Shown piece by piece: positions 19,159-52,066 of a DNA stretch of 64,000 nucleotides. The notes under the pieces are model-generated. The model was not told the origin of the DNA and made no database searches. It saw only the letters and a program-made list of their open reading frames with translations. Position numbers and translations under genes: made by a program. Position 1 is the first letter of the stretch; the number at the start of each line of letters is the position of its first letter. The stretch is from the NCBI GenBank assembly GCA_934167685.1, contig CAKPLQ010000001.1:2624-66623 (forward strand). The letters are read 5' to 3'. This DNA is from an uncultured Clostridia bacterium (GTDB taxonomy: Bacteria > Bacillota > Clostridia > TANB77 > CAG-508).

Positions 19159-19191
19159 TTTTATTAATTAATTATAGAAAGAGAGAATATA

Positions 19192-32158: not shown

Positions 32159-32194
32159 TGAGTGAAAAGTCACTCGCAAATGAAAGGTGAAAAA

Positions 32195-33710: not shown

Positions 33711-33711
33711 C

Positions 33712-34686: not shown

Positions 34687-34708
34687 ATGAGAGGAGACAT
34701 AGTTTACG

Positions 34709-36031
34709 ATGAAAATAACGGTAGCTGGAACAGGATATGTTGGATTAGTGGCTGGGGTATGTTTTGCTGAGAAAGGCCATAACGTATTATGTGTAGATGT
34801 AGATGAAAATAAAGTAAAATTAATGAAACAGGGAAAATCTCCAATATATGAAGAGGGATTAGAAGAACTACTTGCTAAAAATTATAAAGAAGGAAGATTA
34901 GATTTTACAACAGATTATAAAATGGCATATAAGGATGCTGACGCAATATTTATAGGAGTTGGAACACCTGAACAACCAGATGGTTCTGCAAATCTAAGTT
35001 ATGTAGCAACAGTGTCAAGACAGATTGCTGAAAGTGTCGAAAAAGATTGTATTGTTGTTGTAAAATCAACAGTTCCAATAGGAACTAATGATAAGGTAGA
35101 ACAATTTATAGAAGATTCTTTGGTACATGATGTAAAAATTGAGGTAGCAAGTAATCCAGAATTTTTAGCTCAAGGACGAGCTGTAAAAGACACATTAGAA
35201 GCTAAAAGAATTGTAATAGGTACAGAATCTGAAAATGCTGAAAAAGTTTTAAGAGAAATTTATAAACCATTTAATTTACCAATAGTGTCTGTAAATAGAA
35301 GAAGTGCAGAAATGATTAAATATGCATCAAATGATTTTCTAGCATTAAAAATTTCGTATATGAATGATATTGCAAATTTATGTGAATTAGTTGGAGCAGA
35401 TATAGAAGATGTTGCTAGAGGAATGAGTTATGACCTAAGAATAGGAGCAAATTTCCTAAATGCTGGTATTGGATATGGAGGAAGCTGTTTTCCTAAAGAT
35501 ACAAAAGCTTTGAAATATTTGGCAAATCAACATGGATATGAACTAAAAACAGTTGAAGCTGCTGTTGATGTTAATACTGCACAAAAAACAAAATTATTCA
35601 GAAAAGCGTCAAAAAGAATGATAACATTCAAGGGACTAAAAATTGCAATATTAGGATTGACATTTAAACCAGGTACAGATGATTTACGAGAGGCACCTTC
35701 ATTAGATAATGTAAAATTGCTATTAGAAAGTGGAGCTGATAATATATATGCATATGACCCCGTAGGAATTGAGAATTTTAAAAAGAAATATCCAGATGAA
35801 TTAAAATATGTTGAAACACCAGAAGAAGCTCTTGAAAATGCTAATATATGTTTTATATTTACTGAATGGAATGAAATAAAATCTATAAAACCAGAAACAT
35901 ATAAGAAATTGATGAAAACACCATTAGTGTATGACGGAAGAAATATATATCAAGGTAAAGATATGCAAAAAGAAGGAATAGAATATTATTCTATTGGAAG
36001 ACAAGATGTAAATAGCAAAAAATTAGATTAA
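34709..36031 (+). CDS. UDP-glucose 6-dehydrogenase, long (~440-aa, TuaD/YwqF-like) form
   Basis: Has MKITVAGTGYVGLV and the catalytic cysteine region GYGGSCFPKDT, plus a C-terminal UDP-binding domain. RBS GAGGAG. Confidence 0.8.
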   Translation: MKITVAGTGYVGLVAGVCFAEKGHNVLCVDVDENKVKLMKQGKSPIYEEGLEELLAKNYKEGRLDFTTDYKMAYKDADAIFIGVGTPEQPDGSANLSYVATVSRQIAESVEKDCIVVVKSTVPIGTNDKVEQFIEDSLVHDVKIEVASNPEFLAQGRAVKDTLEAKRIVIGTESENAEKVLREIYKPFNLPIVSVNRRSAEMIKYASNDFLALKISYMNDIANLCELVGADIEDVARGMSYDLRIGANFLNAGIGYGGSCFPKDTKALKYLANQHGYELKTVEAAVDVNTAQKTKLFRKASKRMITFKGLKIAILGLTFKPGTDDLREAPSLDNVKLLLESGADNIYAYDPVGIENFKKKYPDELKYVETPEEALENANICFIFTEWNEIKSIKPETYKKLMKTPLVYDGRNIYQGKDMQKEGIEYYSIGRQDVNSKKLD

Positions 36032-36054
36032 CCCAAAAGAAAAGAGGTATAGAT

Positions 36055-37113
36055 ATGGGAAAACATAGTGAAGAAAAAACAAAAACAAAATCAAAGGCGC
36101 TAAAAGTATTTTTGAGAATATTGTTAGTATTATTAATAATATTTGTGATATTAGCAGGGATTGCAGCAGGATTTATTGCCAATAAACTTGGTAAAATTAA
36201 TGTAGAAGAAATAGATGAGACAGCAATAGGAATAAGTGAAGAAACCAAGGAAGAATTATCTGGGTATAGAAATATTGCGTTATTAGGAATAGATAGTAGA
36301 GCAGATGATTATGGATTAGGCAATAGAAGTGATTGTATGATAATAGCAAGTTTAGACCAAAAAACAAAAAATATCAAACTAATTTCAGTATATAGAGATA
36401 CTTATATGCAAGTAGAAGAACACGGAAAACAAGTTTTAGATAAAGTAACACATGCATATTCATATGGAGGAGCACAAAATACGTTAAAAGCTTTAAATAC
36501 AAACTTGGACTTAAATATATCTGAATATGTTACAGTGAATTTTGATGCAGTTATTGCAGCTGTTGATGCAATGGGAGGAGTAACTATTGATATTGATAGT
36601 TCTGAAATAAAATATATTAATGATTATATAGAAGCAACTTCACAAAGTTCTGGAGTAAAATCTTCTCAAATTACAAAAACAGGAAAGCAAACTTTAGATG
36701 GTGTTCAAGCTGTTGCATATTCGAGAATTAGGTATACTGCTGGTGGAGATTATAAAAGAACAGAAAGAATGAGGACAGTTATAGAGGCAATGTTATCAAA
36801 AGCCAAAACTTTGAGTGTTGGAAAATTAAACAAATTAGTAGATACAATTTTACCAAAGATAAGCACCAACATTTCTTCAACAGAAATATTAGGTTTAGCA
36901 CCAAGCATTGCATCATACAATATAACAGACAGTTTAGGTTGGCCATATGAAACAAAAGGAATAACATTAGATAGATGGTATGGAGTTCCTATAACACTTC
37001 AGAGCAATGTAGAACAATTGCACAAAGAAGTATTTGACCAGAAAGATTATGTTGCAAATGATACAATAAAAGATATAAGCAATCAGATTATAAAAAAGAC
37101 AAATTATAAATAA
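36055..37113 (+). CDS. LytR-CpsA-Psr (LCP) family glycopolymer-to-peptidoglycan ligase
   Basis: Has a cytoplasmic Lys-rich N-terminus, one transmembrane helix and an LCP domain with ...NIALLGIDSRADDYGLGNRSDCMIIASLD... and ...YSRIRYTAGGDYKRTERMRTV... Confidence 0.85.
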   Translation: MGKHSEEKTKTKSKALKVFLRILLVLLIIFVILAGIAAGFIANKLGKINVEEIDETAIGISEETKEELSGYRNIALLGIDSRADDYGLGNRSDCMIIASLDQKTKNIKLISVYRDTYMQVEEHGKQVLDKVTHAYSYGGAQNTLKALNTNLDLNISEYVTVNFDAVIAAVDAMGGVTIDIDSSEIKYINDYIEATSQSSGVKSSQITKTGKQTLDGVQAVAYSRIRYTAGGDYKRTERMRTVIEAMLSKAKTLSVGKLNKLVDTILPKISTNISSTEILGLAPSIASYNITDSLGWPYETKGITLDRWYGVPITLQSNVEQLHKEVFDQKDYVANDTIKDISNQIIKKTNYK

Positions 37114-37276: not shown

Positions 37277-37486
37277 TTACTTATTAGCCATATTATTTTC
37301 AACTTGTTGAATCATTTTTCTAACCATATTTCCACCTATTTTACCAGCATCTTTAGCTGATATATCACCATTGTACCCATCTTTTAAAGTTACACCTACT
37401 TCTGAAGCAACTTCATATTTAAATTTATCTAAAGCGCTCATAGCTTCTGGAACTAATTTTTTGTTACTATTGTTTGAGTTTGCCAT
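37277..37486 (-). CDS. alpha/beta-type small acid-soluble spore protein (SASP)
   Basis: MANSNNSNKKLVPEAMSALDKFKYEVASEVGV...GGNMVRKMIQQ carries both conserved SASP alpha/beta blocks. RBS AGGAGGTG. The ORF track start (MKNM...) is a GTG inside the RBS. Confidence 0.85.
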   Translation of the reverse strand: MANSNNSNKKLVPEAMSALDKFKYEVASEVGVTLKDGYNGDISAKDAGKIGGNMVRKMIQQVENNMANK

Positions 37487-37526
37487 GTTTTTCACCTCCT
37501 GTTATATATAACATTTAATTGTTTTG

Positions 37527-37621: not shown

Positions 37622-37702
37622 TGCACGTTTGGGACCGGTTCTTAACGGTGCAGTATTATAATTAGAAAAAATGCACCGTTAAGAACCGGTCCCAACGGTG
37701 CA
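37622..37702. repeat. palindromic repeat element copy B (hairpin dimer: unit - 19-nt A-rich loop - inverted unit)
   Basis: TGCACGTTTGGGACCGGTTCTTAACGGTGCA ... TGCACCGTTAAGAACCGGTCCCAACGGTGCA. It ends 22 nt before the cof-like start codon. Confidence 0.85.
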
Positions 37703-37724: not shown

Positions 37725-38681
37725 ATGTATAAATTAGCAACAATAGACTTAGATGGAACAATGTTAAATCAGTATGGAGTAGTAACAAACAGAACTAAAG
37801 AGGCAATAAAGAAAGCCAAAGAAAGAGGAATAGAAACAATAATTGCATCAGGCAGGCCAATAGATTCAATAAAGACAATTGCGCAAGAGATTGAAAGTGA
37901 TAAATATTTTATTTCTGGCAATGGAGCCATAATATATGATATTCAAAAAGATGAAATTATATACGAAAATACTCTAAAAAAATCGAAAGTTTTAGATATA
38001 ATCAAAATTTGTGAAGAAAATAGTATATATTATAATATTTATACAGAAAAAGAAATATTAGCAAAAAACCTACAGTGCAATGTTTTGTATTACTACAAAG
38101 AAAATTTGAACAAAGCAGAAAAGGATAAAACACATATAACTTTGATTGATGATATATATAAATATATAAGTGAAAGAGAAGAAAAGATTTTGAAAATAAC
38201 TGTATGTGATAGCACAAGAATAATATTCAATTCAATAATACGAAAATTAAAAGAAATAGATGAGGTAGAAGTATTGGACGTGTCACATATGTCAAGAAAA
38301 ATCATAAAGCAAGGAACAGAAGAGATACCAATAGAATATTTTTATACCGAAATTTCGGCTAAAAATGTCGATAAATGGAACGCAATACAAGTTTTAAAAG
38401 AAATTATGAATATAAAAACAGAGGAAATTATTGCAATAGGTGACAACATTAATGATAAAAAAATGATAGAAAATGCAGGATTGGGAATAGCAATGGGGCA
38501 AAGTACACCGCAAATAAAAGAAATAGCAAATCAGATTACAGATTCGAATTGCGAAGATGGTGTGGCTACGTTTTTAGAAAAGTGCACCGATGAGAACCGG
38601 TCCCAACGGTGCAAAAAATTGCACGGCAGAGAACCGGTCCCAACGGTGCAAACCTATAATTTTAAGGAAATGCACCGATAA
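37725..38681 (+). CDS. Cof-type HAD-IIB phosphatase with a repeat-derived C-terminal extension
   Basis: The N-terminal YKLATIDLDGTMLNQYGVVTNRTKEAIKKAKERGIETIIASGRP is HAD motif I/II. Near the C-terminus, ...IAIGDNINDKKMIENAGLGIAMGQS... is motif IV. The last ~34 codons (CTDENRSQRCKKLHGREPVPTVQTYNFKEMHR) are translated from the repeat array. Confidence 0.75.
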   Translation: MYKLATIDLDGTMLNQYGVVTNRTKEAIKKAKERGIETIIASGRPIDSIKTIAQEIESDKYFISGNGAIIYDIQKDEIIYENTLKKSKVLDIIKICEENSIYYNIYTEKEILAKNLQCNVLYYYKENLNKAEKDKTHITLIDDIYKYISEREEKILKITVCDSTRIIFNSIIRKLKEIDEVEVLDVSHMSRKIIKQGTEEIPIEYFYTEISAKNVDKWNAIQVLKEIMNIKTEEIIAIGDNINDKKMIENAGLGIAMGQSTPQIKEIANQITDSNCEDGVATFLEKCTDENRSQRCKKLHGREPVPTVQTYNFKEMHR

Positions 38682-38755
38682 GAACCGGTCCCAAACGTGC
38701 AAAAAGATGCCAAAAAAACAAAAATGCACGGCAGAGAACCGGTCCCAACGGTGCA
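38583..38755. repeat. array of four direct copies of the 31-nt GAACCGGTCCC-core unit (copy C1-C4) separated by 6-, 20- and 23-nt spacers
   Basis: Units are at 38583-38613, 38620-38650, 38671-38701 and 38725-38755, all in the same orientation. They overlap the 3' end of the cof-like ORF. Confidence 0.85.
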
Positions 38756-38882
38756 ATATTACAAAAATATTACAAAAATATTAAATTTATATTACAATAC
38801 ATGTATAATGTTGATTTTAGATGTAAAAAGAGGTAAAATTAATAAAGATAGCAATTAATGCGAAAATAAGGAGGAAATAAAG

Positions 38883-40202
38883 ATGGCGTCAAATCCAATG
38901 CAAAGAAAAGCAAGAAATTCATTCTTATTAGGAATGATAATAACACTATTAATAGCGGGAGTAATAATAGCTTTATTATTTGTGCAATTAAAACAAAAAT
39001 CAGATCAATTAAAGGCTGAGGCAAATGCAAAGAGAAATGTGTATGTTTTAAACCAGGATGTAAAATCAGGACAAGTTATAACAGAGGATATGTTTACAAC
39101 ACAACAGGTTAATAAAGATGCAATACCAAGTAATGCAACTGCAACAGCTTCTGTAATAAGTACGTGGTACGTTCAAACAAAAGATGGAAAAACTTTTAAT
39201 TCAGATTCTTACAATAACATAACTAATACAACTTTTAGCCAACCAACACAAGGGCTATACATAAATGAACCTGATTCAATTTTAGAAGTTGTTGAGATTG
39301 ATGGAAAAAAGTATAAATGTGTAGATAAATATACAGGCGATAAGAGTGGACTTGTTGAGGTTTCTTCAAGAGAAGAAGTTTCTCAAGATGATGATGGTGC
39401 ATATATTGTAGATTCTACAAATAGTTCTGATAAAATTACAAGAGTATATCAAGAGGCTACAACAGGAGAGTATTATGTGTATAAAATTGATACTGCTTCT
39501 ATGACAACAGGAAGTACTAAAACAAGAGTGAAAGAGTATTTGCCTTTGACTAATGTGCCTGTAGTTGCCAAAGTATCTATGAACAAAAATACTGTTGTTA
39601 CACCATATTTAGTAGTTCAATCTGATGAAGTTGTAACAGATGATGTAAGACAACAAGAATATAATATGGTAGTTTTACCTGTGGATTTAATGACAAATGA
39701 TTACATTGATATAAGATTGATGACACCTACTGGACAAGACTTTATTGTAGTATCTAAAGCTAAAGTTGATGTACCAATGAACACAGATGGTACATATGTA
39801 ACAGATACTATAAGAGTTAATCTAAGAGAAGATGAGATTTTATCTATGTCTAGTGCAATAGTAGAAGCTTATGGATTGTTAGGTTCAAAATTATATGCTA
39901 CAAAATATGTAGAGGCAGGAATGCAAGAACCATCATTACCAACATATACACCAAATGCAGCTGTAACAGCACAAATACAATCTGACCCTAATATCGTATC
40001 AGTAGCAAGCGAAGAATTGGCTTCAAGATATTCTGAACCAGCTAAAAAAGCTAGAAATGATTATTTACAATCTTTGATAAATAATTCAGAAGATTATAAT
40101 GAAAATATTCAAGACAAGGCAGATGAAAAAATAACAAATCAAACTACAGCAAGACAAAAATACTTGGAATCTCTAGCAAATGGTGGAGCAACAACAAATT
40201 AA
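38883..40202 (+). CDS. CpaB/RcpC-like Flp-pilus assembly protein (N-terminal transmembrane helix plus SAF-like domain) with a Thr/Val-rich extension
   Basis: Has an N-terminal transmembrane helix (FLLGMIITLLIAGVIIALLFV). The segment ...NVYVLNQDVKSGQVITEDMFTTQQV... resembles the CpaB SAF domain. It is the first gene of the Tad-like cluster. RBS AAGGAGGAAATAAAGATG. Confidence 0.45.
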   Translation: MASNPMQRKARNSFLLGMIITLLIAGVIIALLFVQLKQKSDQLKAEANAKRNVYVLNQDVKSGQVITEDMFTTQQVNKDAIPSNATATASVISTWYVQTKDGKTFNSDSYNNITNTTFSQPTQGLYINEPDSILEVVEIDGKKYKCVDKYTGDKSGLVEVSSREEVSQDDDGAYIVDSTNSSDKITRVYQEATTGEYYVYKIDTASMTTGSTKTRVKEYLPLTNVPVVAKVSMNKNTVVTPYLVVQSDEVVTDDVRQQEYNMVVLPVDLMTNDYIDIRLMTPTGQDFIVVSKAKVDVPMNTDGTYVTDTIRVNLREDEILSMSSAIVEAYGLLGSKLYATKYVEAGMQEPSLPTYTPNAAVTAQIQSDPNIVSVASEELASRYSEPAKKARNDYLQSLINNSEDYNENIQDKADEKITNQTTARQKYLESLANGGATTN

Positions 40203-40299
40203 TTAAAACAAAAGAGCAAGGGCTGACATTAATAAAAGCCCTTGCTATGTGAAATTTAAAACAAATTTTTAAATTAATGCAAGAAAGGAAAACTAAAAT

Positions 40300-40986
40300 A
40301 TGAAAAAAATCGGGTTTATAGGCGCTTGTGATAAGACTAATGTAATATTAAGTGTAGCTAAAGTTCTAACAATGGCTAACAGAAAAGTTCTAGTGTTGGA
40401 TAATACTATAACGCAAAAATGCAAATATGTAGTACCAGTTATAAACCCAACAAAATCATATATTACAACTTATGAAGATATAGATGTTGCAGTAGGGTTT
40501 GAAAATTTTGAGAATATAAGACAATATATGGGACTGGATGAAAACGAAAACTTTAATTATGATTATATCTTGGTGGATGTAGATAGTTTTGAAGGAATTC
40601 AAAAGTTTGGATTACAGTCTGCAGATAAAGCATATTTCGTAACATCATTTGACATGTATTCGTTGAAAAGGGGAGCAGAAATTATAAACCAATTAGGAGT
40701 TCCTACTAAAATGACCAGAATATTTTATTCAAAAGATTTATTAAAAGAAGAAGAAGAATACTTCGATTTTTTAATGTTGGGGTCAAAAGCAATATGGAAC
40801 GAAGAAAAAGTATATTTTGTTTTAGAAAATGGAGATTGGCCAGCAATAATGGAAAATGAACGTATTTCTAAAATTAAATTCAAAAACTTGAGCAATGAAT
40901 ATAAGGCAAATATTACTTTTTTAGTAAATGATATAGATGAAGGAATAGGAAATAAGGCAATAAAGAATATTATAAAAAGTCTTTAA
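40300..40986 (+). CDS. TadZ/CpaE-like ParA/MinD-fold protein with a degenerate Walker A (paralog 1)
   Basis: The N-terminus KIGFIGACDKTNVILSVAKVL is a deviant P-loop with a MinD/ParA-like architecture. It lies immediately upstream of a paralog and the CpaF-like ATPase. Confidence 0.45.
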   Translation: MKKIGFIGACDKTNVILSVAKVLTMANRKVLVLDNTITQKCKYVVPVINPTKSYITTYEDIDVAVGFENFENIRQYMGLDENENFNYDYILVDVDSFEGIQKFGLQSADKAYFVTSFDMYSLKRGAEIINQLGVPTKMTRIFYSKDLLKEEEEYFDFLMLGSKAIWNEEKVYFVLENGDWPAIMENERISKIKFKNLSNEYKANITFLVNDIDEGIGNKAIKNIIKSL

Positions 40987-41002
40987 TTAAAGGAGTTAAG
41001 AT

Positions 41003-41869
41003 ATGGCAATTGTAACATTTTGGAATAATGATAGAGAACAATCCGGAAAGACTCTAACAGCGGTTGCTGTTGCAACTAAAATGGCTATAGAACGCAATTA
41101 TAAAATTTTATTAATTTCAACAAGTTTTCAAGATACAACATTAAGAAATTGCTTTTGGGAAAATGAAACGCAAAGAACATTAAAATTGTTTGGAATGAAA
41201 AGTAATAATATAGCTGTTGAAACTGGGATTGAGGGACTGGCAAAACTTATATCAGCAAATAAGTTAACGCCAACTACAATTACAGATTATACAAAAGTAA
41301 TTTTTAAAGGAAGATTAGAAGTTATAAGTGGATTTATGGGAGCAAAAGAACTTACTAGAGCGACAAATTATGCAGAATATGAAAAAATACAAAAAATTTA
41401 TGTTGATTTAATTAAAACAGCCAATCAATACTATGATATGGTATTAGTTGACTTAGATAAATATATGCCAGAAGATTTGACAAAAGAAATTTTGAAATTA
41501 TCAAATTTGAATGTAATAGTTTTCTCTCAGAGAAAAGAAAGCTTAGACAGATATATGATGTTAAGAGAAAAAGACCCTATAATAAATAGTCCAAAAACTT
41601 TGCCAGTTGTTGGAAAGTATATGGATAAAACTAAATATAATATGAAAAATATAATGAAATATTTAGGCAATAGAAAAGATTTAAGCGTAATTCCTCTTAA
41701 TATGTTATATTTTGAAGCTTCAGAAGAAGCAGCAGTACCAGATTTGTTTTTAAGATTGCAGAATGTAAAAGACACATCAGATGAAAATTACATTTTTATG
41801 CGAGATGTGCTAGAACTTATGGAGAAAATTATAAATAGATTGCAAGAATTGCAAATGAAAATGAGGTGA
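41003..41869 (+). CDS. TadZ/CpaE-like ParA/MinD-fold protein with a degenerate Walker A (paralog 2)
   Basis: The N-terminus IVTFWNNDREQSGKTLTAVAVATKMA is a deviant P-loop. The protein has a ParA-like length and position. Confidence 0.45.
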   Translation: MAIVTFWNNDREQSGKTLTAVAVATKMAIERNYKILLISTSFQDTTLRNCFWENETQRTLKLFGMKSNNIAVETGIEGLAKLISANKLTPTTITDYTKVIFKGRLEVISGFMGAKELTRATNYAEYEKIQKIYVDLIKTANQYYDMVLVDLDKYMPEDLTKEILKLSNLNVIVFSQRKESLDRYMMLREKDPIINSPKTLPVVGKYMDKTKYNMKNIMKYLGNRKDLSVIPLNMLYFEASEEAAVPDLFLRLQNVKDTSDENYIFMRDVLELMEKIINRLQELQMKMR

Positions 41870-41873
41870 AAAA

Positions 41874-43793
41874 ATGACGCTAACTAATATATTATTAACA
41901 ATAGTTGTTATAATACTTGCCGGAGGAGGCATAGCATATTTTGTAAAAAGAAATAAAAATGCCGAAGTTGAAGAACAAATAGAAAAAGACGAGAAAACAT
42001 ATACTTTAGATGCTATGAGAAACTATATTAAAAAGAGATTAGACGAAATAACTAAAGTAAACTTGTATGATATTGGATTGTCAGAAGAGGAATTAAAACG
42101 TAGAAAAAACAAAAAGTACGCATTAAAAAAGGCCTTAAAAGGTTGTACTTATGGAGACGTTAATGACAAAAGATATGTAAAAGAGCTTATTTCAGATTTA
42201 TTATCAAAAGAGTATGGTGTAAATGAAGCCAATATATCAAGTGCAATTCCATTTGATATGCCATCATTACTAACATCTCAAGATAAATTTGATATATTAA
42301 TATATGTCTATAAAAAAGAATTTGGATATGAAGCATTAACACAATTGATAAAAAGATATAACTTAGCAACTTTAAAATATTTAGAAGGTGAAACAAAACC
42401 TTGTTATGTAATAACAGATGATGAGATTGATCAAATATTTGAAAAAGAAAAAATCACATTGTCATTCCAAGATAAACTAGAAGTTGTAGTACAAAGAATA
42501 TATCAACATTATAAAGGTTATAGCTCAATAGATGAGATAAGAGATATGAACATAGATGGTGTATCTGGTGGTGTATCTGGTTTACCAGAAAGCTTTTTAA
42601 GCCAAGTAGCACAAACAGATGGAGATTATTTAGACCAAGTAGCTGAACACAAAGTACCAAGAGCTTGTGACAGTATATGGATATTCTTCCAAGGTAAATC
42701 AATACGTTTAGCATTCTTATCATTTGGCACAGAATCAGAATTAAAAAGAGTATGTCAAAATATTTATAAATACAATAACCCAGGACAGTTATCAGATACA
42801 AATGGTTATAAAATCAATGAAATGAAAGATGGTTCTCGTGTTGTTGTAGTAAGACCATCAATGTCAGAAACATGGGCATTCTTTGTAAGAAAGTTCGATG
42901 TAAAAAGAGCAACAGTTGAACAATGGACTGGTAACATGCCAGGAAATGATAAAGTAATTGATTTACTAAAATTCTTAGTAAAAGGAGCAAGAATTACATC
43001 AATCACTGGTGAGCAGGGTTGTGGTAAAACAACACTACTTATGGGTATGATTGAAAATATATATGAAACAATGAACTTACGTATTACAGAAACTGCTTTC
43101 GAGTTGCACTTAAGAAAAGTTTATCCAACAAGAAACATTTTGTCAATGCGTGAAACAGATACAATATCTGGACAAGAGTGTTTGGACGTACAGAAAAAAA
43201 CTGACGGTTCTGTAAACATCATAGGTGAGGTTGCAACAGACCCCGTAGCATCTTGGATGATTCAATCTGCACAGGTTGCATCTAAATTTACATTATTTAC
43301 TCACCATGCTAAAACATTCCCAGACTTAGTAACTGCACTACGTAACTCAATGTTAAGAGCTGGAGTATTCAAAAATGAAAAAACAGCAGAAGAGCAAGTA
43401 GTTCAAGTACTAAATTTCGACATACATCTACAAAAAGACTTTAGAGGTAGAAGATACATAGAAAGAGTAACAGAATGTATTCCAATTGTAGACCAAAAGA
43501 CATATGATTATGACTATAAAGGTGAAAAAACTATGGATGGAAAAGTTCAAAAATTCTTTGAAAATGCAACAACATATTTCTCAAAAGTAACAGAGCAAAA
43601 TCTATATAGATATCAAAATATATTGGAATATGTAGATGGAGAATATCAAATAACAAATAAAATAACAGATAAAAACTTAGCAGAAATGAGAGCTAATATG
43701 GACGAATCTGATATAGAAGAATTTGACAGCTTTGTTGATACATATTGGGGAGACCAAATTAGAAAAGAAAAAAAGGCTAAAGTGCAGAAGTAG
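41874..43793 (+). CDS. CpaF/TadA-family secretion ATPase (VirB11-like) with an N-terminal transmembrane anchor
   Basis: Walker A motif ITGEQGCGKTTLLMGM, an Asp box, and a Walker B motif within ...GSVNIIGEVATDP.... The His box lies near ...LFTHHAKT.... Residues 5-24 (ILLTIVVIILAGGGIAYFV) form a predicted transmembrane helix. Confidence 0.75.
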   Translation: MTLTNILLTIVVIILAGGGIAYFVKRNKNAEVEEQIEKDEKTYTLDAMRNYIKKRLDEITKVNLYDIGLSEEELKRRKNKKYALKKALKGCTYGDVNDKRYVKELISDLLSKEYGVNEANISSAIPFDMPSLLTSQDKFDILIYVYKKEFGYEALTQLIKRYNLATLKYLEGETKPCYVITDDEIDQIFEKEKITLSFQDKLEVVVQRIYQHYKGYSSIDEIRDMNIDGVSGGVSGLPESFLSQVAQTDGDYLDQVAEHKVPRACDSIWIFFQGKSIRLAFLSFGTESELKRVCQNIYKYNNPGQLSDTNGYKINEMKDGSRVVVVRPSMSETWAFFVRKFDVKRATVEQWTGNMPGNDKVIDLLKFLVKGARITSITGEQGCGKTTLLMGMIENIYETMNLRITETAFELHLRKVYPTRNILSMRETDTISGQECLDVQKKTDGSVNIIGEVATDPVASWMIQSAQVASKFTLFTHHAKTFPDLVTALRNSMLRAGVFKNEKTAEEQVVQVLNFDIHLQKDFRGRRYIERVTECIPIVDQKTYDYDYKGEKTMDGKVQKFFENATTYFSKVTEQNLYRYQNILEYVDGEYQITNKITDKNLAEMRANMDESDIEEFDSFVDTYWGDQIRKEKKAKVQK

Positions 43794-43822
43794 TAAATAA
43801 ACATAGGAGGTGTTCTTAGAAC

Positions 43823-45892
43823 ATGAGTACTCAAATGCTAAAATATATAATGATTATAACAGTTGTATTGTTTGTAGGAATCATTATAGCATATGTAATT
43901 TTAAAAAAGATGATGGGAAAATCAGAATATGCAAAGATGAAGAAACTACAAGAAGGAACAAAGGCTGACGGATTTTCATCAGATATATTATACCAAAAAA
44001 TATATATAACGCTTATTAGGACACCTTTTCTAAAAAGATATTTATTCAAATTAAGAAGAAGACTAGAAATAGTCAATATAGATGATGAATATACAACCAG
44101 AAAAGAAGCAGCGCAAATAATGACAAAAGCAATATTAATATTCTTTTTTATAGCGTTGCTAACCATTCTTATTACACACAATAACTGGTTATTAATGTCA
44201 ATATTATTGATTTTTGAGTTATTTATTGTAGATACAATGGTACAAGGAATGGTTGATAAAATTGATAATAACTTACTTAAAGAGCAGATAGATTTCTTTG
44301 CAGAAATAAGACATGCTTACCATGAGTATAACATGGTTGAAGAAGCAATTTATCAAGTATCACTTGATGATGAAAAAAATGTTTCTAAACAAGGTGAAAA
44401 AATATATGAAATATTATGTTCAGATGACCCAGAAACAGAATTAGAAAAATATTATGATGTAGCACCAAATGATTATTTAAAAGAATTTGCTGGTATATCT
44501 TATTTAACACAAGAATTTGGAGATAGAAGAGGAGATGACGGTTCTTCTTTATATCTAAAAAATGTTGATAATATAACACAAGAAATGCAATTAGAGATAT
44601 TAAAAAGAGATAAATTGAACTATGTATTCCAGAGTTTAACATTTATTTCAATAGCTCCAGTATTGCTATTGGAACCATTAAAATCTTGGGCAGTATCGAA
44701 CTTCTATTTTACAACAAGTTTTTATAATGACAAATTAGGATTAGTAGCACAGATTTTAATAGTACTTTTAACAGTAGTGTCATACATAATGACAAGAAAA
44801 TTAAAAGATAATGGTGGTGTTCAAGTACAAATATCTCATAATGACCACCCATGGCAAGAAAAAGTATACAAAATACCAGTATTAAAACAAGCAATAAATT
44901 GTTTTATACCAAAGCCGGGAACTAAAGATTATAGAACAATGCAACAACTTATGAAAGATTCGGCATCAAAAGCTAAAATGGAATGGATTTACATTAACAG
45001 ATTAGCACTGACAATTGTTACATTTATATGTTCAATATTTTTCTTTATAATATTACATAAAGTAGCAATTAATTATGTTTATACAAATCCTACAACAGAA
45101 CAAACTGTGCTGGGGTCTTTGTCGGAAAAGAACCAGAAAAAAGCAGAAGACTTAACTAAGCAAGATAACTACTTCTTAGACAAATTAAAAGGAGACTTAA
45201 AAATAACTCAAGACAAAGTTGAAAGAGAAATGATAAAATCTCCATATTATGAAGAAGATGATAAAAATTTAGAAACAGATGCAAAAAGAATAATGACTAA
45301 ATTAAAAGTTGTAAATTCTGAGCAAATGCAGTGGTTTGAAATATTATTAGCTTGCGGGTTTGCTTTAATTGGATATATGGCACCTGTTTGGATGATGTAT
45401 TTCCAAAAATTCATGAGAAAGCTAGAAATGGAAAATGAAGTAATGCAGTTCCAAACAATTATATTAATGCTTATGAAAATAGAGAGAATAAGTGTAGAAA
45501 TGATTTTGGAATGGCTAGAAAGATATGCAAATATTTATAAAGAGCCTATCTCTAGGTGTGTAAATAATTACGAAGCAGGAGCATGGGAAGCATTAGAAGA
45601 GCTTAAAAACTCTGTAACAAATCAAGATATGATAAGAATTGTAGAAAGTCTACAAGCAGCAGTAGAAAAAATACCAATCAAAGAAGCATTTGATGAATTA
45701 GATGCAGATAGAGATTATCACCAACAAAAGAGAAAAGATACTAATGACCAATTAGTATCAAGAAAAGGCTTAATAGGAAAGGGTGTAGGCTTTGCACCAA
45801 TGATTTGTTTATTTGTGGGATATTTGATTATACCATTAGTTGTAATAGGTATGACGTCTATGTCATCTACATTTACTCAATTAGGTGCTTAA
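43823..45892 (+). CDS. fused two-domain TadB/TadC-like (T2SSF-type) inner-membrane platform protein
   Basis: 689 aa with an N-terminal transmembrane helix and two clusters of transmembrane helices separated by cytoplasmic helical domains. Its position directly after the ATPase is typical of platform proteins. Confidence 0.55.
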   Translation: MSTQMLKYIMIITVVLFVGIIIAYVILKKMMGKSEYAKMKKLQEGTKADGFSSDILYQKIYITLIRTPFLKRYLFKLRRRLEIVNIDDEYTTRKEAAQIMTKAILIFFFIALLTILITHNNWLLMSILLIFELFIVDTMVQGMVDKIDNNLLKEQIDFFAEIRHAYHEYNMVEEAIYQVSLDDEKNVSKQGEKIYEILCSDDPETELEKYYDVAPNDYLKEFAGISYLTQEFGDRRGDDGSSLYLKNVDNITQEMQLEILKRDKLNYVFQSLTFISIAPVLLLEPLKSWAVSNFYFTTSFYNDKLGLVAQILIVLLTVVSYIMTRKLKDNGGVQVQISHNDHPWQEKVYKIPVLKQAINCFIPKPGTKDYRTMQQLMKDSASKAKMEWIYINRLALTIVTFICSIFFFIILHKVAINYVYTNPTTEQTVLGSLSEKNQKKAEDLTKQDNYFLDKLKGDLKITQDKVEREMIKSPYYEEDDKNLETDAKRIMTKLKVVNSEQMQWFEILLACGFALIGYMAPVWMMYFQKFMRKLEMENEVMQFQTIILMLMKIERISVEMILEWLERYANIYKEPISRCVNNYEAGAWEALEELKNSVTNQDMIRIVESLQAAVEKIPIKEAFDELDADRDYHQQKRKDTNDQLVSRKGLIGKGVGFAPMICLFVGYLIIPLVVIGMTSMSSTFTQLGA

Positions 45893-45906
45893 ACATGGAG
45901 GTTTAG

Positions 45907-46689
45907 ATGGAGAATGTAACAAAGGCACTGCTTATAGCTGCTGGAATACTATTAGCAATTATGATTTTAACTTTACTCATAGTATTCTGGGGACAATTAT
46001 CAGGATATTATACGCAACAACATAATGATAAAATTGTTGAACAAGAGGCTAAAATCAATGCAAAATTTGAAAATTATAATGGACAAACAATAAGAGGAAA
46101 TGAATTAGTTTCAGTTATGAATATGGTTATCGACTATAATAATGCTGTAGCAGAAATGGACGGATTTGATAAAGTAATTATGTCTGTTGATTTTAAAGGA
46201 TGCCAGAACAAATCAAAAGATAATTTTAAATATAGTGATTCAGATAGAAGCATATTTTCTGGAAACATTCTTACAAATTCACAATCAAGTGATGCAAATT
46301 TAAAAAATGTAGCAAATATTCCAGAGACAATACGTTTAAAGTTACAAAATGCAGGATTTGATAATGTTACTGATGCACAACTTCAAAAATTGTCTGCAAA
46401 TATATATAATATTGTAAATATCAATTCTGCAGATACAAATGGTATTAATACCAGAAACAGAAAACTTCAAAATATTCTTTTATTAAGTGATGATGAAGTA
46501 AGAGCATTATCAGCGTCAAAAATTTCTACAATAGAAGAAGTAACTAAACAATATTATCAATATACACAATTTAAAAGAGCTATGTTTAAGTGCACAGGTG
46601 TTGAACACAATACAACCGGAAATGCAAGAGTAAATAAAATAACATTTGATATAGTATTATTAGATAATGGAAGTGCAAAATTTAATTAA
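45907..46689 (+). CDS. leaderless Flp/pilin-like protein, paralog 1 (MENVTKALLIAAGILLAIMIL...)
   Basis: An in-frame TAG lies directly before the ATG. RBS GGAGG 6 nt upstream. The N-terminal 25 aa are conserved with three downstream paralogs. 260 aa in total. Confidence 0.5.
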   Translation: MENVTKALLIAAGILLAIMILTLLIVFWGQLSGYYTQQHNDKIVEQEAKINAKFENYNGQTIRGNELVSVMNMVIDYNNAVAEMDGFDKVIMSVDFKGCQNKSKDNFKYSDSDRSIFSGNILTNSQSSDANLKNVANIPETIRLKLQNAGFDNVTDAQLQKLSANIYNIVNINSADTNGINTRNRKLQNILLLSDDEVRALSASKISTIEEVTKQYYQYTQFKRAMFKCTGVEHNTTGNARVNKITFDIVLLDNGSAKFN

Positions 46690-46705
46690 TTGAAAGGATA
46701 CTTGT

Positions 46706-47152
46706 ATGGAAAATGCGGTTAAAGCCTTGTATATAGCAGCCGGAGTGTTAATTGCAGTAATGATTTTGTCTTTAGCTGCTGTAGTATATTCAAGTTTGCA
46801 AGGTTATGTAGAAAATACAAATCAACAGATAGAATTTAATGAAATAAATAGTTTTAATACGCAATATCTTGATTATGCTAATAAAGATGTTTCTATTCAA
46901 GATATAGTAACAGTTGCAGGCAATGCATATGAAAACAATTATTCATATAGTCCAGATATTAATCAATGGAATATTTCTGATAAATCTTTTTATGTGCAAG
47001 TTTTATTAAATGGAACTAGAATAGACCAAAATATTAATGATATAATGGTTAACTTATTAGAAAATAACAAGGATAAAGTATTTGTAACTGATGATATATC
47101 ATATGCAAAAGACACTTCAAAAGTGTGCAGTATAAGTTTTAAAACAAAGTAA
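46706..47152 (+). CDS. leaderless Flp/pilin-like protein, paralog 2 (MENAVKALYIAAGVLIAVMIL...)
   Basis: An in-frame TGA lies 15 nt upstream, with no alternative start possible in between. The N-terminus is conserved with the paralogs. Confidence 0.5.
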   Translation: MENAVKALYIAAGVLIAVMILSLAAVVYSSLQGYVENTNQQIEFNEINSFNTQYLDYANKDVSIQDIVTVAGNAYENNYSYSPDINQWNISDKSFYVQVLLNGTRIDQNINDIMVNLLENNKDKVFVTDDISYAKDTSKVCSISFKTK

Positions 47153-47199
47153 AAAAATGTTGCAATTTAAAAAATTAAATGTTATAATGAGGGAAAATA

Positions 47200-47637
47200 A
47201 TGAAAAAAGTAATTATGTTTTTAGCTATTATTGTAATTATTATAGTTACTTTAGTAGGATATAGATATATTTCTTATAAAAATCATTATAAGGAAATTCA
47301 AAAAGAAAATTCTGATTTTGATAAATATAAAGACCAAGAAGTATATGGCTTAGATGTAGCCTCATTAATAAATATGGCTATAGATAAGAATACTAAAAAT
47401 AAAATTGAAAAAGATGATAATGGAAACTTTATTACAAATGAAGAAAATTCTATAGAAATTGAAATTTATATGACAGATAATGATACTACATATAAAATGG
47501 AAAGTATTAGTAATTCTGGAATAGAGCAATTTCTACAGTATTATAAAGACATAAAATTTAAATGTTCAAAAATAGAGTATCATAAAAACACAGGAAGAGT
47601 TAAATATATACTATTTGAACAACAAGAAAACAGTTAA
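47200..47637 (+). CDS. small N-terminally anchored membrane protein of the Tad-like locus (TadE/pseudopilin-like?)
   Basis: MKKVIMFLAIIVIIIVTLVGY: a single N-terminal transmembrane helix followed by a ~120-aa extracytoplasmic domain. Confidence 0.35.
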   Translation: MKKVIMFLAIIVIIIVTLVGYRYISYKNHYKEIQKENSDFDKYKDQEVYGLDVASLINMAIDKNTKNKIEKDDNGNFITNEENSIEIEIYMTDNDTTYKMESISNSGIEQFLQYYKDIKFKCSKIEYHKNTGRVKYILFEQQENS

Positions 47638-47694
47638 TAAAGTTCAGCGAGAGCTGATTATGATAAACAAAAGTATAAAAAGGGGGGAGAAACT

Positions 47695-48105
47695 ATGGAA
47701 AACGCAACAAAGGCATTATTAATTGCAGCAGCAGTTTTAATAGCTATCTTAATTATCTCTTTAGGATTAGTTGTTTATAATAACTCTGCAAACACTGTTA
47801 ATCAAGCAAACTTATCATCACAAGAGATACAAGCTCAAAATGAGAAGTTTACAAGATATAATGGTAAATACAAAAGAGGTTCTGAAGTAAACTCTTTATT
47901 ACAAACAGCATTAAACTATAATTTAAATACTACAGACGATGGAAATAAAGTTACAGTGAATTATGGAAAAGAGACGCTAGTAGATAGTAGTTCTACAAGC
48001 ATAGAAAAACAAATGGACACAAGTAAATTATATGACATTAAAGTTAATTATGGTGGAGCTGGAGGACTTGTAGATACAATTACAATAACTGATGCAGCAA
48101 AATAA
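47695..48105 (+). CDS. leaderless Flp/pilin-like protein, paralog 3 (MENATKALLIAAAVLIAILII...)
   Basis: RBS GGGGGGAG 5 nt upstream. The N-terminal motif is conserved. The C-terminus is Gly-rich (YGGAGGLVD). Confidence 0.5.
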   Translation: MENATKALLIAAAVLIAILIISLGLVVYNNSANTVNQANLSSQEIQAQNEKFTRYNGKYKRGSEVNSLLQTALNYNLNTTDDGNKVTVNYGKETLVDSSSTSIEKQMDTSKLYDIKVNYGGAGGLVDTITITDAAK

Positions 48106-48135
48106 TAAAATTAATGAGTGAAAGGGGATATACTT

Positions 48136-48843
48136 ATGGAAAATGCGATAGAAGCTTTAAAAATTGCAGGAGCAGTATTAATGTTTGTATTGGCATTGAC
48201 ATTAAGTATATCTTCTTTGTCTCAAGCCAATTCAGCAGTTAGTAGTATTGCAACAATGTATGATAAAGATGCACAATCTACTTATGTTCAGCCAGCACAA
48301 GACTTAACAAGAGTAGTAGGAATGGAAACAATAATTCCTACAATGTATAAAGCTTATGAAGAAAACATAGAAATATATTTCTTTAAAGCAGATGGAAGTC
48401 CACTACCAATATATTATAAAACAAATCAATATGGTAGTAGAGTGGATTCAGAAGGTAAATCTGTAGCCAATAGCAATCCTAATGCTGTAACAGTAAATTA
48501 TATAGACTTATCTAAAGAAAGTTTTGGAACAGAAAATGGAAAAGAAGCTACACAAGTGGCAACAGAGCACTTAAGCTTAATATTAGCTGGTGGAAACAAG
48601 TGGAAAAATCAATATAGAAATAACCAAGAAATGTTAAATTTATTAGATGAGAAAAAATATGGAAATCAATTAATGGATACAGAATATCCAAATGGTTTTT
48701 ATGCATATTTAAATGGTAAAAAATTTGTCGAAAATTTAGGTGAATATTATCAAGGTTCAAATCAAGATGAAGACGAGAGTTTAGCAAGTACAACTGCTAC
48801 GAAAATTAAAAAAAGAGTTATAACATACAAATTAACAAACTAA
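48136..48843 (+). CDS. leaderless Flp/pilin-like protein, paralog 4 (MENAIEALKIAGAVLMFVLAL...)
   Basis: Start at the ATG following AAAGGGGA. The ORF track begins at an upstream GTG (MKGDIL...). The N-terminal motif is conserved. Confidence 0.45.
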   Translation: MENAIEALKIAGAVLMFVLALTLSISSLSQANSAVSSIATMYDKDAQSTYVQPAQDLTRVVGMETIIPTMYKAYEENIEIYFFKADGSPLPIYYKTNQYGSRVDSEGKSVANSNPNAVTVNYIDLSKESFGTENGKEATQVATEHLSLILAGGNKWKNQYRNNQEMLNLLDEKKYGNQLMDTEYPNGFYAYLNGKKFVENLGEYYQGSNQDEDESLASTTATKIKKRVITYKLTN

Positions 48844-48856
48844 AAGGAGAAAACAG

Positions 48857-49417
48857 ATGGAAGATACATCTATGGATATAATAGGAATATTGTTTGGTGC
48901 AATATTAATGTTTGTAGTTCCACTATTTTTAATTGCGAATAAATCTGATGATATATCTCAATTAGTAGCACAATCTGCTACATCTGAGTTCGTAAATGAG
49001 GTTGTAAGGTCTGGACAAATTACTGCAGATGAATATCAAAGTTTTATGACCACATTAAACACATCTGGAAATACATTTGACATAGATATACATGTTCAAA
49101 TTCTAGATGAAACACCATCAAAAATGGTAACAGATGCAGATGCACAAAAGATAGGAACAAACTCATATTACTCATTATACACAACTCAAGTTGAGAGCAA
49201 AATTGGAAACTCTTCTGCAACAACGTCCAATAATAGAGTTGGAAAACTTATATTAAAACAAGGAGACCAAGTTTCTGTAACAGTAAAAAATAGTAGTAAA
49301 ACACTATCTCAAGCTTTAAGAAATGTATATTACAATGTAACAGGAAATGATATACATATAATTGCAGCTGCAGCATCAGGTACTGTAACAATAAATGGTT
49401 CTACAGGAACAATATAA
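48857..49417 (+). CDS. small N-terminally anchored membrane protein of the Tad-like locus
   Basis: MEDTSMDIIGILFGAILMFVVPLFLIANKSDD: one transmembrane helix followed by a ~150-aa Ser/Thr-rich extracytoplasmic domain. RBS AAGGAGAAAACAGATG. Confidence 0.35.
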   Translation: MEDTSMDIIGILFGAILMFVVPLFLIANKSDDISQLVAQSATSEFVNEVVRSGQITADEYQSFMTTLNTSGNTFDIDIHVQILDETPSKMVTDADAQKIGTNSYYSLYTTQVESKIGNSSATTSNNRVGKLILKQGDQVSVTVKNSSKTLSQALRNVYYNVTGNDIHIIAAAASGTVTINGSTGTI

Positions 49418-49511
49418 AAAGACTAATTAATGAAAAAAATTTAATTAGTCTTTTTTTGTGTATAAAAAATTTTTAAGTACTAATAATAAAAAACAAAGGA
49501 GTGAAAAATTC

Positions 49512-50570
49512 ATGAAAACACTCAAAAAAATACTTTTTTTATTTGTACTAATTTTTTTATATGTATTTTTATTAACAAGAGGCTATTATCCAGAAACAAT
49601 AGCAGTAAAAGGCGAAGAAATTCGATTATCAGATATTCAAGTAATTCCAATAGGGCAAGTTGCAGGAATAAAATTATATACAAGTGGAGTACTAGTTGTA
49701 GGGACATCTGGAATTCAAAGTACGGATGGCAAAACATACAAACCTTATGAAAATACTGGAATACAAGAAGGTGATTCAATAAATTCAATTAATGACATTA
49801 TAGTAAATAATACAGAAGAATTAATAGATGCAGTCAATTTGTATGAAGGAAAAACAGTACATGTAAAATATACAAGAGATAATCAAGAAAAAACTTGTGA
49901 AATAACTCCAGTAAAAGACAGAAGTGGAAAATATAAATTAGGTTTATGGGTTAGAGATAGTGCTGCAGGAGTTGGAACTATAACCTTTTATTATGAAGAA
50001 AACAATACATTTGCAGGATTAGGACATGGAATAACTGACATAGATACAGGAGATATAATACAAACATCTTCTGGAGAAATAGATGAAGCAAGTATTGTAT
50101 CTATAGTAAAAGGCAAGGATGGAGAACCTGGGAAAATTCAAGGAAGTATAAAACAAGATAGTGTTATTGGAAGTATTTACAAAAATACTCCATATGGAAT
50201 TTATGGGATGATAAAAGAACCTAATAATATAAAAATAGATACTTCTAGAAAAATAAATGTGGCACCTAGACAAGAAATAAGTCTAGGAGAAGCAACAATT
50301 TTATCTAATATTAGTGGAGACCTAAAAGAATATAAAATCGAAATACAGAAAACTTATTTAAATAATAATTATGATAACAAAAGTATGGTACTAAAAGTTG
50401 TAGACCCACAATTATTAGAATTAACAGGCGGAATAATTCAAGGAATGAGTGGTTCGCCAATTATACAAAACAATAAATTTATAGGAGCTGTAACACATGT
50501 TTTTGTAAAAGATTCTAGTATTGGTTATGCTGTTTTTGCAGATAGAATGGTTAGTGAAATATGCAGATAA
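49512..50570 (+). CDS. spoIVB: SpoIVB-family serine peptidase (PDZ plus S55 peptidase)
   Basis: Has a signal anchor (KKILFLFVLIFLYVFLL) and a PDZ segment (GIQEGDSINSINDIIVNNTEELIDAVN). The peptidase S55 motif ...GIIQGMSGSPIIQNNKFIGAVTHVF... is present. Start chosen at MKTLKK after the RBS AAAGGAGTG. Confidence 0.75.
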   Translation: MKTLKKILFLFVLIFLYVFLLTRGYYPETIAVKGEEIRLSDIQVIPIGQVAGIKLYTSGVLVVGTSGIQSTDGKTYKPYENTGIQEGDSINSINDIIVNNTEELIDAVNLYEGKTVHVKYTRDNQEKTCEITPVKDRSGKYKLGLWVRDSAAGVGTITFYYEENNTFAGLGHGITDIDTGDIIQTSSGEIDEASIVSIVKGKDGEPGKIQGSIKQDSVIGSIYKNTPYGIYGMIKEPNNIKIDTSRKINVAPRQEISLGEATILSNISGDLKEYKIEIQKTYLNNNYDNKSMVLKVVDPQLLELTGGIIQGMSGSPIIQNNKFIGAVTHVFVKDSSIGYAVFADRMVSEICR

Positions 50571-51991: not shown

Positions 51992-52066
51992 AGGGGTATA
52001 GTGTTAATGGTAGCACATCGGTCTCCAAAACCGCCTGTGTGGGTTCGAATCCTACTACCCCTGCCA
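51992..52066 (+). tRNA. tRNA-Trp (anticodon CCA)
   Basis: AGGGGTA acceptor stem / TACCCCT. The anticodon loop is CTCCAAA, with CCA at positions 34-36. The T-arm is GTGGGTTCGAATCCTAC and the 3' end is GCCA. A terminator hairpin (AACAGATTTTTTTAATCTGTTTTTT) follows at 52088-52115. Confidence 0.85.

Follow-up and report, generated by a model that had tools for sequence, protein, structure and literature searches.

A divergent Tad-like operon encoding a CpaF-type ATPase with a predicted membrane anchor and a putative fused TadB-TadC platform in an uncultured Clostridia bacterium

The window analyzed in this study is a stretch of 64,000 nucleotides (nt) from an uncultured Clostridia bacterium (GTDB lineage Bacteria; Bacillota; Clostridia; TANB77; CAG-508), i.e., positions 2,624 to 66,623 of contig CAKPLQ010000001.1 in the assembly GCA_934167685.1. 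Eleven genes on the forward (+) strand, at positions 38883-49417, form an operon. This operon probably codes for a machine that is related to the Tad (Flp) type IV filament machine but has diverged strongly and is specific to Firmicutes, and in which the products of the fourth and fifth genes, an ATPase and a platform protein, would serve as motor and platform. The two open reading frames (ORFs), at 41874-43793 (639 amino acids, aa) and 43823-45892 (689 aa), are present as stated in an earlier sequence-only reading of the window, and Shine-Dalgarno (SD)-like sequences precede both. From 5' to 3', the operon encodes a CpaB-like SAF protein, a 228-aa ParA-fold protein, a 288-aa TadZ/CpaE-like protein, the ATPase, the platform, five small paralogues, and a 186-aa membrane-anchored protein, and it contains a single ATPase gene. 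The family represented by this locus resembles the Tad machine but falls outside its canonical definition with respect to the Pfam thresholds, the Flp motif, the peptidase, and the TadE-like proteins.

The motor ATPase and its N-terminal segment

The 639-aa protein (41874..43793, +) is a predicted TadA/CpaF-type secretion ATPase with intact catalytic motifs, as the sequence-only reading had proposed, and is composed of a signal-anchor, a helical N-terminal region, the N2D, and the ATPase domain. In a search against all solved structures, the sole significant relative was Caulobacter CpaF (8rkd/9e24), with an E value of 1.8e-8 over residues 268-553, which cover the N2D and ATPase domains; a profile built from five ATPase sequences matched CpaF in the PDB at 1.3e-9. 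VirB11, PilT, and DotB matched around the P-loop only, and none of FlaI, archaeal GspE, PilB, and GspE was found at E < 1 in the search against solved structures. In the alignment of the ATPase family, K385 and T386 of the Walker A motif, E406 and E410 of the Asp box, E452 of the Walker B motif, and T476 and H478 of the His box are invariant, and all four motifs align with those of CpaF. Since the catalytic residues are invariant, an active enzyme is expected. The protein scores 19.2 bits for Pfam T2SSE (PF00437), which is under the gathering score of 24.9, and its best NCBIfam match, the TadA-type TIGR03819, was obtained at 1.8e-9 with 37.2 bits, far below the cut-off of 373. Automated annotation already names the protein TadA/CpaF. 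The region at approximately residues 40-215 (~175 aa) is helical, specific to the family, and conserved within it.

The Walker A motif GEQGCGKTT (residues 379-387; 43008..43034, +) had been described as unusual. Among the close relatives, however, GEQGCGKTT is found in 63 and GEQGSGKTT in 17 sequences, and the plasmid homologues carry G[AS]QGSGKTT, GQQG[SA]GKTT, or GEQGSGKST, i.e., mostly Ser and Ala in one. Because the Cys occupies a free x position of the consensus GxxxxGK[ST], this is a trivial Cys/Ser swap and not a meaningful deviation.

ATPases of the CpaF/TadA branch are usually soluble cytoplasmic proteins without transmembrane (TM) segments. In the ATPase of the window, residues 6-24 (ILLTIVVIILAGGGIAYFV; 41889..41945, +), instead of residues 5-24 as assigned earlier, form a hydrophobic segment whose Kyte-Doolittle mean of 2.62 is the highest of any 19-residue stretch in the protein. 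The segment follows an uncharged N-terminus, MTLTN, and precedes KRNK (residues 25-28); an uncharged N-terminus before the segment and Lys and Arg residues after it are what a reverse signal-anchor would show, and they predict an external N-terminus and an internal ATPase. For comparison, we used 80 related loci, each from a different GTDB species of gut and rumen Clostridia, whose ATPases are 75-93% identical. An equivalent segment (Kyte-Doolittle mean of 2.2-3.5) followed by a run of Lys/Arg is present in all 80, and its residues are poorly conserved while the hydrophobicity is kept, which indicates selection on hydrophobicity and not on sequence. The anchor is also present in all eight Bacillales plasmid homologues, and thus in 88 of the 90 family members examined. 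The two members without an anchor, which have no room for one, are the Clostridium plasmid homologues of C. argentinense and C. botulinum type E. These are also the two most divergent homologues (37-40% identity), and since the anchor is missing only there, it is an ancient trait of most family members. In ten other ATPases of the CpaF/TadA/VirB11 type from Proteobacteria, Actinobacteria, and Firmicutes, the hydropathy peak does not exceed 1.58 and no anchor is found. The signal-anchor proposed earlier is thus supported in that the segment behaves as membrane-spanning by hydropathy, and from the hydropathy, the positive-inside pattern, and the conservation we infer that it is inserted in the membrane.

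The apparent absence of the anchor from two of the plasmid homologues was rejected as an artefact of too-short RefSeq starts. In Thermobacillus pTHECO01 (positions 8875-8956 of the locus) and Alkalihalophilus pseudofirmus pBpOF4-01 (8926-9058), the RefSeq start of the ATPase lies too far downstream, and an in-frame ATG abutting the preceding gene adds an N-terminal TM segment; six further Bacillales plasmid ATPases carry the segment as annotated. Such start-site errors do occur in the family, as the RefSeq starts of these two homologues differ from the longest ORF, but the probability that the anchor in the window merely reflects a wrong start codon, or that it is a secretion signal removed by cleavage, is negligible, because the frame opens only three codons 5' of the ATG, GAGGTG lies 5-10 nt before this ATG, the segment is retained in nearly all homologues despite its drift, there is no positive n-region and the KRNK or KKKK after the segment is the reverse of a Sec signal, and the export of a Walker ATPase would be pointless.

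The fused platform and the pilin-like subunits

The gene directly downstream of the ATPase gene encodes a 689-aa protein (43823..45892, +) that is, as judged by profile comparison, a head-to-tail TadB-TadC fusion and would act as an inner-membrane platform. Eight hydrophobic segments are evident in the hydropathy profile and correspond to eight predicted TM helices. The distribution of Lys and Arg in 103 sequences indicates an external N-terminus and an internal location for residues 141-264 and 526-656, which predicts that the two platform-like helical domains are cytoplasmic. The AlphaFold2 (AF2) model of the protein is confident, with a predicted local distance difference test score (pLDDT) of 91.4 and a predicted template modeling score (pTM) of 0.86.

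The family profile was divided into an N-half (residues 90-335) and a C-half (residues 480-689), and these were compared by hhalign with profiles of canonical TadB and TadC, annotated or ORF-derived, from the Tad loci of Rhizobium (two loci), Azospirillum, Pimelobacter, Vibrio, and Ralstonia. The N-half matched the six-sequence TadB profile at P = 1.5e-8 (probability 95.5%, 223 columns), in an alignment that covers the Pfam-defined T2SSF segment of Rhizobium TadB, and matched TadC at only 0.02. The C-half, on the other hand, matched the TadC profile at P = 1.1e-4 (168 columns) and TadB at 2.4e-3, and its score reached 4.2e-6 (probability 86.9%) against a merged profile that includes four Firmicute sequences. 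The reversed-profile controls gave 0.15-0.33 for the N-half and 0.04-0.38 for the C-half. Matches to single TadB or TadC sequences were not significant and the signal was obtained only with multi-sequence profiles, the scores climbing steadily as canonical TadB and TadC sequences were added. The alignments delimit a TadB-like half at approximately residues 95-333 (44105..44821, +) and a TadC-like half at approximately residues 506-683 (45338..45871, +). The family profile is also collinear with two adjacent genes of Clostridium sporogenes pNPD7 (locus 6068-12530): residues 1-330 match residues 1-298 of a 298-aa protein at 2e-5, and residues 305-685 match residues 2-359 of a 359-aa protein at 1.5e-12. 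From this end-to-end match, the 689-aa protein is best described as two genes in one.

The five small paralogues that follow the platform gene are mutually homologous (hhalign, 1e-10 to 4e-26), and all of them consist of an N-terminal hydrophobic helix and a fast-evolving C-terminal domain. They are pilin-like proteins of 260 aa (45907..46689, starting MENVTKAL), 148 aa (46706..47152, starting MENAVKAL), 145 aa (47200..47637, N-terminus MKKVIMFLAII..., TM residues 3-21), 136 aa (47695..48105), and 235 aa (48136..48843, starting MENAIEAL), all on the + strand; the 260-aa and 148-aa proteins each have the N-terminal motif, a TM segment, and an SD sequence. For the 235-aa protein, the ORF list gives a GTG start at 48118 (241 aa), and the SD sequence and the orthologues, which start at MEN, support the ATG at 48136. 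In hhalign comparisons, the 136-aa protein matched the 260-aa protein at 4.3e-26, the 145-aa protein at 1.3e-11, and the 235-aa protein at 5.1e-11, and the 145-aa and 260-aa proteins matched each other at 3.2e-18. Four of the five start with M-E-N-A/V-x-x-A-L followed by a hydrophobic stretch; none of these MEN ORFs has an upstream in-frame start, and an SD sequence accompanies each ATG. The best-conserved paralogue is the 136-aa protein, which is a candidate for the major subunit. Its residues M1, E2, N3, K6, A7, L8, I10, and A11 are invariant in 39 orthologues, and it is 30-61% identical between species. Residues 1-24 are near-invariant, and the remainder of the pilin-like proteins is 21-61% identical, as against 75-93% for the ATPases of the same species. 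In the AF2 model of the 136-aa protein (pLDDT 85.9), a helix at residues 2-37 and a second helix at residues 42-53 lead into an alpha/beta domain, and the overall shape of the model is lollipop-like and may be called pilin-like.

The N-termini of these proteins depart from those of known subunits. The G/XXXXEY processing motif of Flp pilins is found in none of the six small proteins of the operon, and a TadE profile gave no significant hhalign match (0.06-0.28) to the 186-aa, 136-aa, 145-aa, and 260-aa proteins or to the 241-aa form of the fifth paralogue. Glu2, which is invariant in 39 sequences, might correspond to Glu5, the acidic residue near the mature N-terminus of type IV pilins. No polytopic ORF with the GxGD motif of a prepilin peptidase (TadV/CpaA, peptidase A24) was found within the 64-kb window, and no prepilin peptidase is annotated in the four plasmid loci. 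Because the subunits begin with Met-Glu-Asn and have neither a leader nor a Gly-1, they may be assembled uncleaved, with no involvement of a prepilin peptidase. We tentatively raise the further possibility, which must be regarded as doubtful, that the family is a distinct branch of type IV filaments that dispenses with the prepilin peptidase, with leaderless, "pre-matured" subunits, Glu2 in the role of Glu5, and a membrane-integral motor on a fused TadB-TadC platform. The last gene of the operon (48857..49417, +) encodes the 186-aa membrane-anchored protein, whose N-terminus ...MF(V)xP(L)...DR(N/T)DD is conserved; it gave no family match, and the gene is conserved in the 80 loci and in the plasmid loci.

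A core of ATPase, platform, and pilin-like proteins also serves the pseudopili of the type II secretion system (T2SS) and Com systems (PMC6668835), and a membrane-fixed motor with several paralogues resembling minor pilins would be compatible with a piston-like endopilus. The operon could therefore encode a short pseudopilus for protein secretion or DNA uptake in place of an adhesive pilus. We consider this unlikely, because no ComEA/ComEC-like or secreted-substrate genes were recognized in the operon and because the fast evolution of the subunit C-termini, relative to the ATPases, fits surface exposure.

Several results weigh against the assignment of the operon to a Tad-like machine. Pfam and NCBIfam detect no T2SSF or other domain in the 689-aa protein, and in 68 platform family members, down to 20% identity, Pfam T2SSF was not found at E <= 0.01, whereas the canonical TadB and TadC controls match it at 1.7e-17 to 4.5e-7. 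The platform family profile yielded only chance matches among the PDB sequences (hmmsearch), with no GspF or PilC, and a Foldseek search of the PDB with the full-length model gave none at E < 0.2 and no T2SSF protein among the 50 listed. The link to T2SSF comes from pairwise hhalign P values and from small profiles that were built in this study out of 6-16 sequences. The N-half and the C-half of the platform matched each other only at 0.075, which is not significant, and an internal duplication is thus not demonstrable by sequence. As for the subunits, the class III signal peptide with its positive leader and Gly-1 is absent from the MEN proteins, and Foldseek with the 136-aa model against the PDB gave a best E value of 1.2 and no pilin among 48 matches. 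Finally, the filament, the ATPase activity, and the topology are predictions from sequences and models.

The lack of Pfam, NCBIfam, PDB-sequence, and Foldseek matches, together with the modest score of the C-half (1.1e-4) and the small profiles, might mean that the 689-aa protein has no relationship to T2SSF, being an unrelated polytopic membrane protein that was recruited beside a CpaF-like ATPase, and that its hhalign matches reflect helical or TM composition. This is very unlikely, because the forward scores beat the reversed controls by 3-7 orders of magnitude, and the long alignments (157-225 columns) are collinear and span the Pfam-defined T2SSF segment of real TadB and TadC. Moreover, the N-half and the C-half score best against different paralogues, which follow the order of the operon, the scores rose steadily with the number of canonical sequences, and the gene lies directly after the ATPase gene, as in Tad loci. 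The earlier proposal that this gene unites both T2SSF-like halves of the platform therefore stands at the level of profile-profile comparison, which finds two platform-like halves and not a single T2SSF domain joined to unrelated sequence; the two T2SSF repeats that a standard domain search had been expected to detect did not appear.

Operon partners, distribution, and genomic setting

The first gene of the operon encodes a CpaB/RcpC-like protein of 439 aa (38883..40202, +) with an N-terminal TM segment (residues 16-34), a SAF domain, and a conserved C-terminal region. Its match to Pfam SAF (E = 1.1e-5) is above the cut-off and that to TIGR03177 CpaB (E = 1.8e-6) is below it; hhalign against the SAF/CpaB proteins of other Tad loci gave 3.4e-4, over the SAF region only. 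The gene is also the first of the operon in the relatives and on the plasmids. The 228-aa ParA-fold protein (40300..40986, +) has a degenerate P-loop, GACDKT, and is weakly TadZ-like: hhalign gave 1.6e-3 against a TadZ/CpaE profile and 6.8e-4 against the 288-aa protein, and no Pfam family was matched at its cut-off. This gene is conserved in the plasmid loci. The 288-aa TadZ/CpaE-like ParA-fold protein (41003..41869, +), with the atypical Walker A motif EQSGKT, matched the TadZ/CpaE profile with a probability of 95.8% (P = 7.6e-9, 204 columns), and its gene has a conserved position directly 5' of the ATPase gene.

The sequence-only reading had taken the atypical features of the motor as possible signs of a distinct lineage, and the lineage is indeed distinct, large, and widespread in Firmicutes. 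The platform family has 1094 representatives after clustering at 50% identity, almost all of them 640-700 aa long and matching end to end, and a search with the ATPase alignment found at least 562 relatives among the GTDB species genomes. The order of a HAD hydrolase gene, the 11-gene operon, and spoIVB is found again in the majority of the 80 related loci. A core of seven genes, i.e., those for the CpaB-like protein, both ParA-like proteins, the ATPase, the platform, one pilin-like protein, and the 186-aa protein, is common to megaplasmids of Thermobacillus, Alkalihalophilus, C. argentinense, and C. botulinum, and a full-length ATPase homologue followed by an unannotated gene of ~680 aa is found on plasmids of Paenibacillus, Cohnella, Sporosarcina, Cytobacillus, and Lysinibacillus. 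In the four plasmid loci examined, RefSeq names the platform and pilin-like gene products "hypothetical protein". We found no description in the literature of this family, of a TM-anchored CpaF/TadA, of a fused bacterial TadBC, or of leaderless pilins.

The plasmid loci are flanked by very large proteins with S-layer-homology, DUF5704, or cell-wall-binding repeats (pTHECO01 locus, 16006-19764; pBpOF4-01 locus, 15331-19794; locus L003, 1671-5912 and 16007-20084; locus L005, 700-5445), and the Clostridium plasmids also carry a GGDEF protein. These proteins may regulate the machine, act as adhesins, or be its cargo.

The same reading had suggested a lineage that may be horizontally acquired or archaeal-like; in such a lineage, the motor would be FlaI-like and the platform FlaJ-like and retained in the ancestral two-domain form. 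According to Denise et al. 2019 (PMC6668835), TadB and TadC arose by fission, the platform of archaea is a single chain with two domains, as was that of the ancestor, and Tad systems as a whole derive, as proposed there, from an archaeal Epd-like system; the occurrence of the family on plasmids would also agree with acquisition. Nevertheless, a recently acquired or archaeal-like lineage is most unlikely. Bacterial CpaF alone was significant in the structure search. In the archaeal two-domain platforms, the N-domain is related to TadC and the C-domain to TadB (PMC6668835), and the order in the 689-aa protein is the reverse. This TadB-to-TadC order, which is the bacterial gene order, and the split relative in Clostridium favor a secondary fusion over a retained archaeal form. 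The guanine-plus-cytosine (GC) content is unremarkable, at 28-31% for the locus and ~28% for the low-GC 64-kb window, with no compositional break, and the operon and its flanks are syntenic over at least 80 species. Neither half of the earlier suggestion is borne out for this locus. As the wider family is present on megaplasmids, transfer has happened elsewhere in the family's history.

The plasmid relatives also invite a comparison with mating-pair or conjugation apparatuses, as is assumed for such loci. Homologous loci occur on large Bacillales and Clostridium plasmids, some of them typed MPF_T or MPF_F by MOB-suite, and one adjoins a replication-relaxation gene; the C. botulinum type E plasmids that carry a relative have been described, in generic terms, as having conjugation genes (PMC4824171). 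A conjugative function is nonetheless extremely improbable, because the operon of the window and of the 80 genomes lies on the chromosome, where the HAD gene and spoIVB are its neighbors and genes for a relaxase, a coupling protein, or VirB4 are absent from the vicinity, and most of the plasmids are typed as non-mobilizable.

In the window, the HAD hydrolase gene flanks the operon upstream, and the gene for SpoIVB (49458-50570; Pfam S55, 2e-79) flanks it downstream; spoIVB lies directly 3' of the operon in most related species. The spoIVB gene and an ORF similar to alpha/beta-type SASP (37277-37495, minus strand) indicate that the DNA is from a spore-former, and identical or near-identical proteins are found in human-gut assemblies named Clostridium sp. 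CAG:356 / 28_12. A scan for sigma-70 promoters was uninformative in this AT-rich DNA, with 76 found and 92 expected. Four tandem copies of a GC-rich palindrome of ~31 nt (TGCACCG..GAACCGGTCCCAACGGTGCA) lie between the HAD gene and the CpaB-like gene (38572-38764), the HAD ORF extending into the first copies, and a fifth copy, at 37672-37702, forms a terminator-like hairpin after the SASP gene. This palindrome looks like a REP-type intergenic repeat in a genome of 28% GC. An 11-nt unit, AATATTACAAA, is present in three tandem copies at 38755-38797, just 5' of the first gene of the operon. The genes at 32162-37113 (+), a short distance 5' of the operon, suggest surface-polysaccharide or cell-wall functions: they encode polytopic membrane proteins (32162-33055 and 33018-33710, +), a protein of the NAD-dependent epimerase/dehydratase family (33712-34686, +) with GDP-mannose 4,6-dehydratase as its best Pfam match, a 440-aa product (34709-36031, +) that resembles a nucleotide-sugar dehydrogenase on reading of its translation, and an LCP protein (36055-37113, +). 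A tmRNA gene (772-1124, -) with the tag ADNTELAFAA and a tRNA-Trp gene (51992-52066, +) are also present in the window.

The proposed machine and its relation to known systems

In the Tad-like machine that we propose, the ATPase hexamer would remain anchored to the membrane at all times, beside the fused platform or surrounding it, and its ATP-driven conformational changes would be passed to the cytoplasmic platform domains. The platform would then pull pilin-like subunits out of the membrane and add them at the base of a surface filament, the MEN subunits entering this assembly uncleaved by a prepilin peptidase. The CpaB-like protein could line the route across the wall, and a scaffolding or positioning role could fall to the TadZ-like proteins. 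In these gut Clostridia, the likely role would be adhesion or another function of surface filaments.

Type IV filament machines are defined by an ATPase that is hexameric and soluble, by a T2SSF platform, by pilins whose class III leader is cleavable, and by the prepilin peptidase. In the family, the first three of these parts differ within one conserved system, and the fourth, the peptidase, was not found in the locus. To our knowledge, leader cleavage has so far been treated as universal in type IV filaments, and it would prove dispensable if the peptidase-free reading were true. The family is extremely conserved in dominant uncultured Clostridia of the gut and rumen, as the identities of the ATPases illustrate. 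If the peptidase-free reading holds, a major and highly conserved surface filament, present in abundant uncultured gut Clostridia and encoded by Bacillales megaplasmids, would also have been overlooked, because the standard models miss both the platform and the subunits. Recognition of the family would improve annotation and the search for gut adhesion and colonization factors, and it raises testable questions on how the motor docks on the platform, whether the TadB/TadC heterodimer works as one unit, and whether leader processing is needed.

Among the known systems, the archaeal type IV pilus and archaellum (FlaI and FlaJ) share with the family a one-polypeptide platform with two cytoplasmic domains and many TM helices. 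They differ in the motor, as the ATPase has no significant similarity to FlaI among the solved structures, in the order of the platform domains, and in the host, which is a bacterial spore-former. PilC and GspF of the type IVa pilus and the T2SS are likewise two-domain, single-chain platforms paired with a hexameric secretion ATPase. They show no sequence or Foldseek similarity to the family platform and usually have three TM helices, whereas eight are predicted here, and the family ATPase is CpaF-like and not PilB/GspE-like.

The bacterial Tad/Flp systems (e.g., Cpa of Caulobacter crescentus and Tad of Aggregatibacter), whose parts are TadA/CpaF, TadB/CpaG, TadC/CpaH, TadZ/CpaE, and RcpC/CpaB, are similar in the CpaF-type ATPase encoded by a single gene, the TadB- and TadC-like halves in operon order, the TadZ-like ParA-fold protein with an atypical P-loop, and the SAF/CpaB-like first gene. 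The family, in contrast, has an ATPase with a TM anchor and a family-specific N-region of ~175 aa, the whole protein not reaching the Pfam and NCBIfam cut-offs; a fused TadB and TadC that PF00482 does not detect; and two TadZ-like genes, with no recognizable Flp pilin or TadE/F/G and no TadV in the locus. Its subunits, at 136-260 aa, have globular domains and no leader.

The locus on C. sporogenes pNPD7 shares features with both groups. As in the family, a SAF protein is encoded upstream, the locus is a Firmicute locus left unannotated by RefSeq, the 298-aa and 359-aa proteins align over their full lengths with the N-part and the C-part of the 689-aa family, and the ATPase (468 aa) is 24.6% identical. 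On the other hand, its platform is split, its ATPase has no anchor, the TadZ-like pair is absent, and several of its small proteins carry classical class III leaders, KGG|LS, with a Gly-1. The pNPD7 locus is thus a useful intermediate between the canonical Tad systems and the family with the fused platform.

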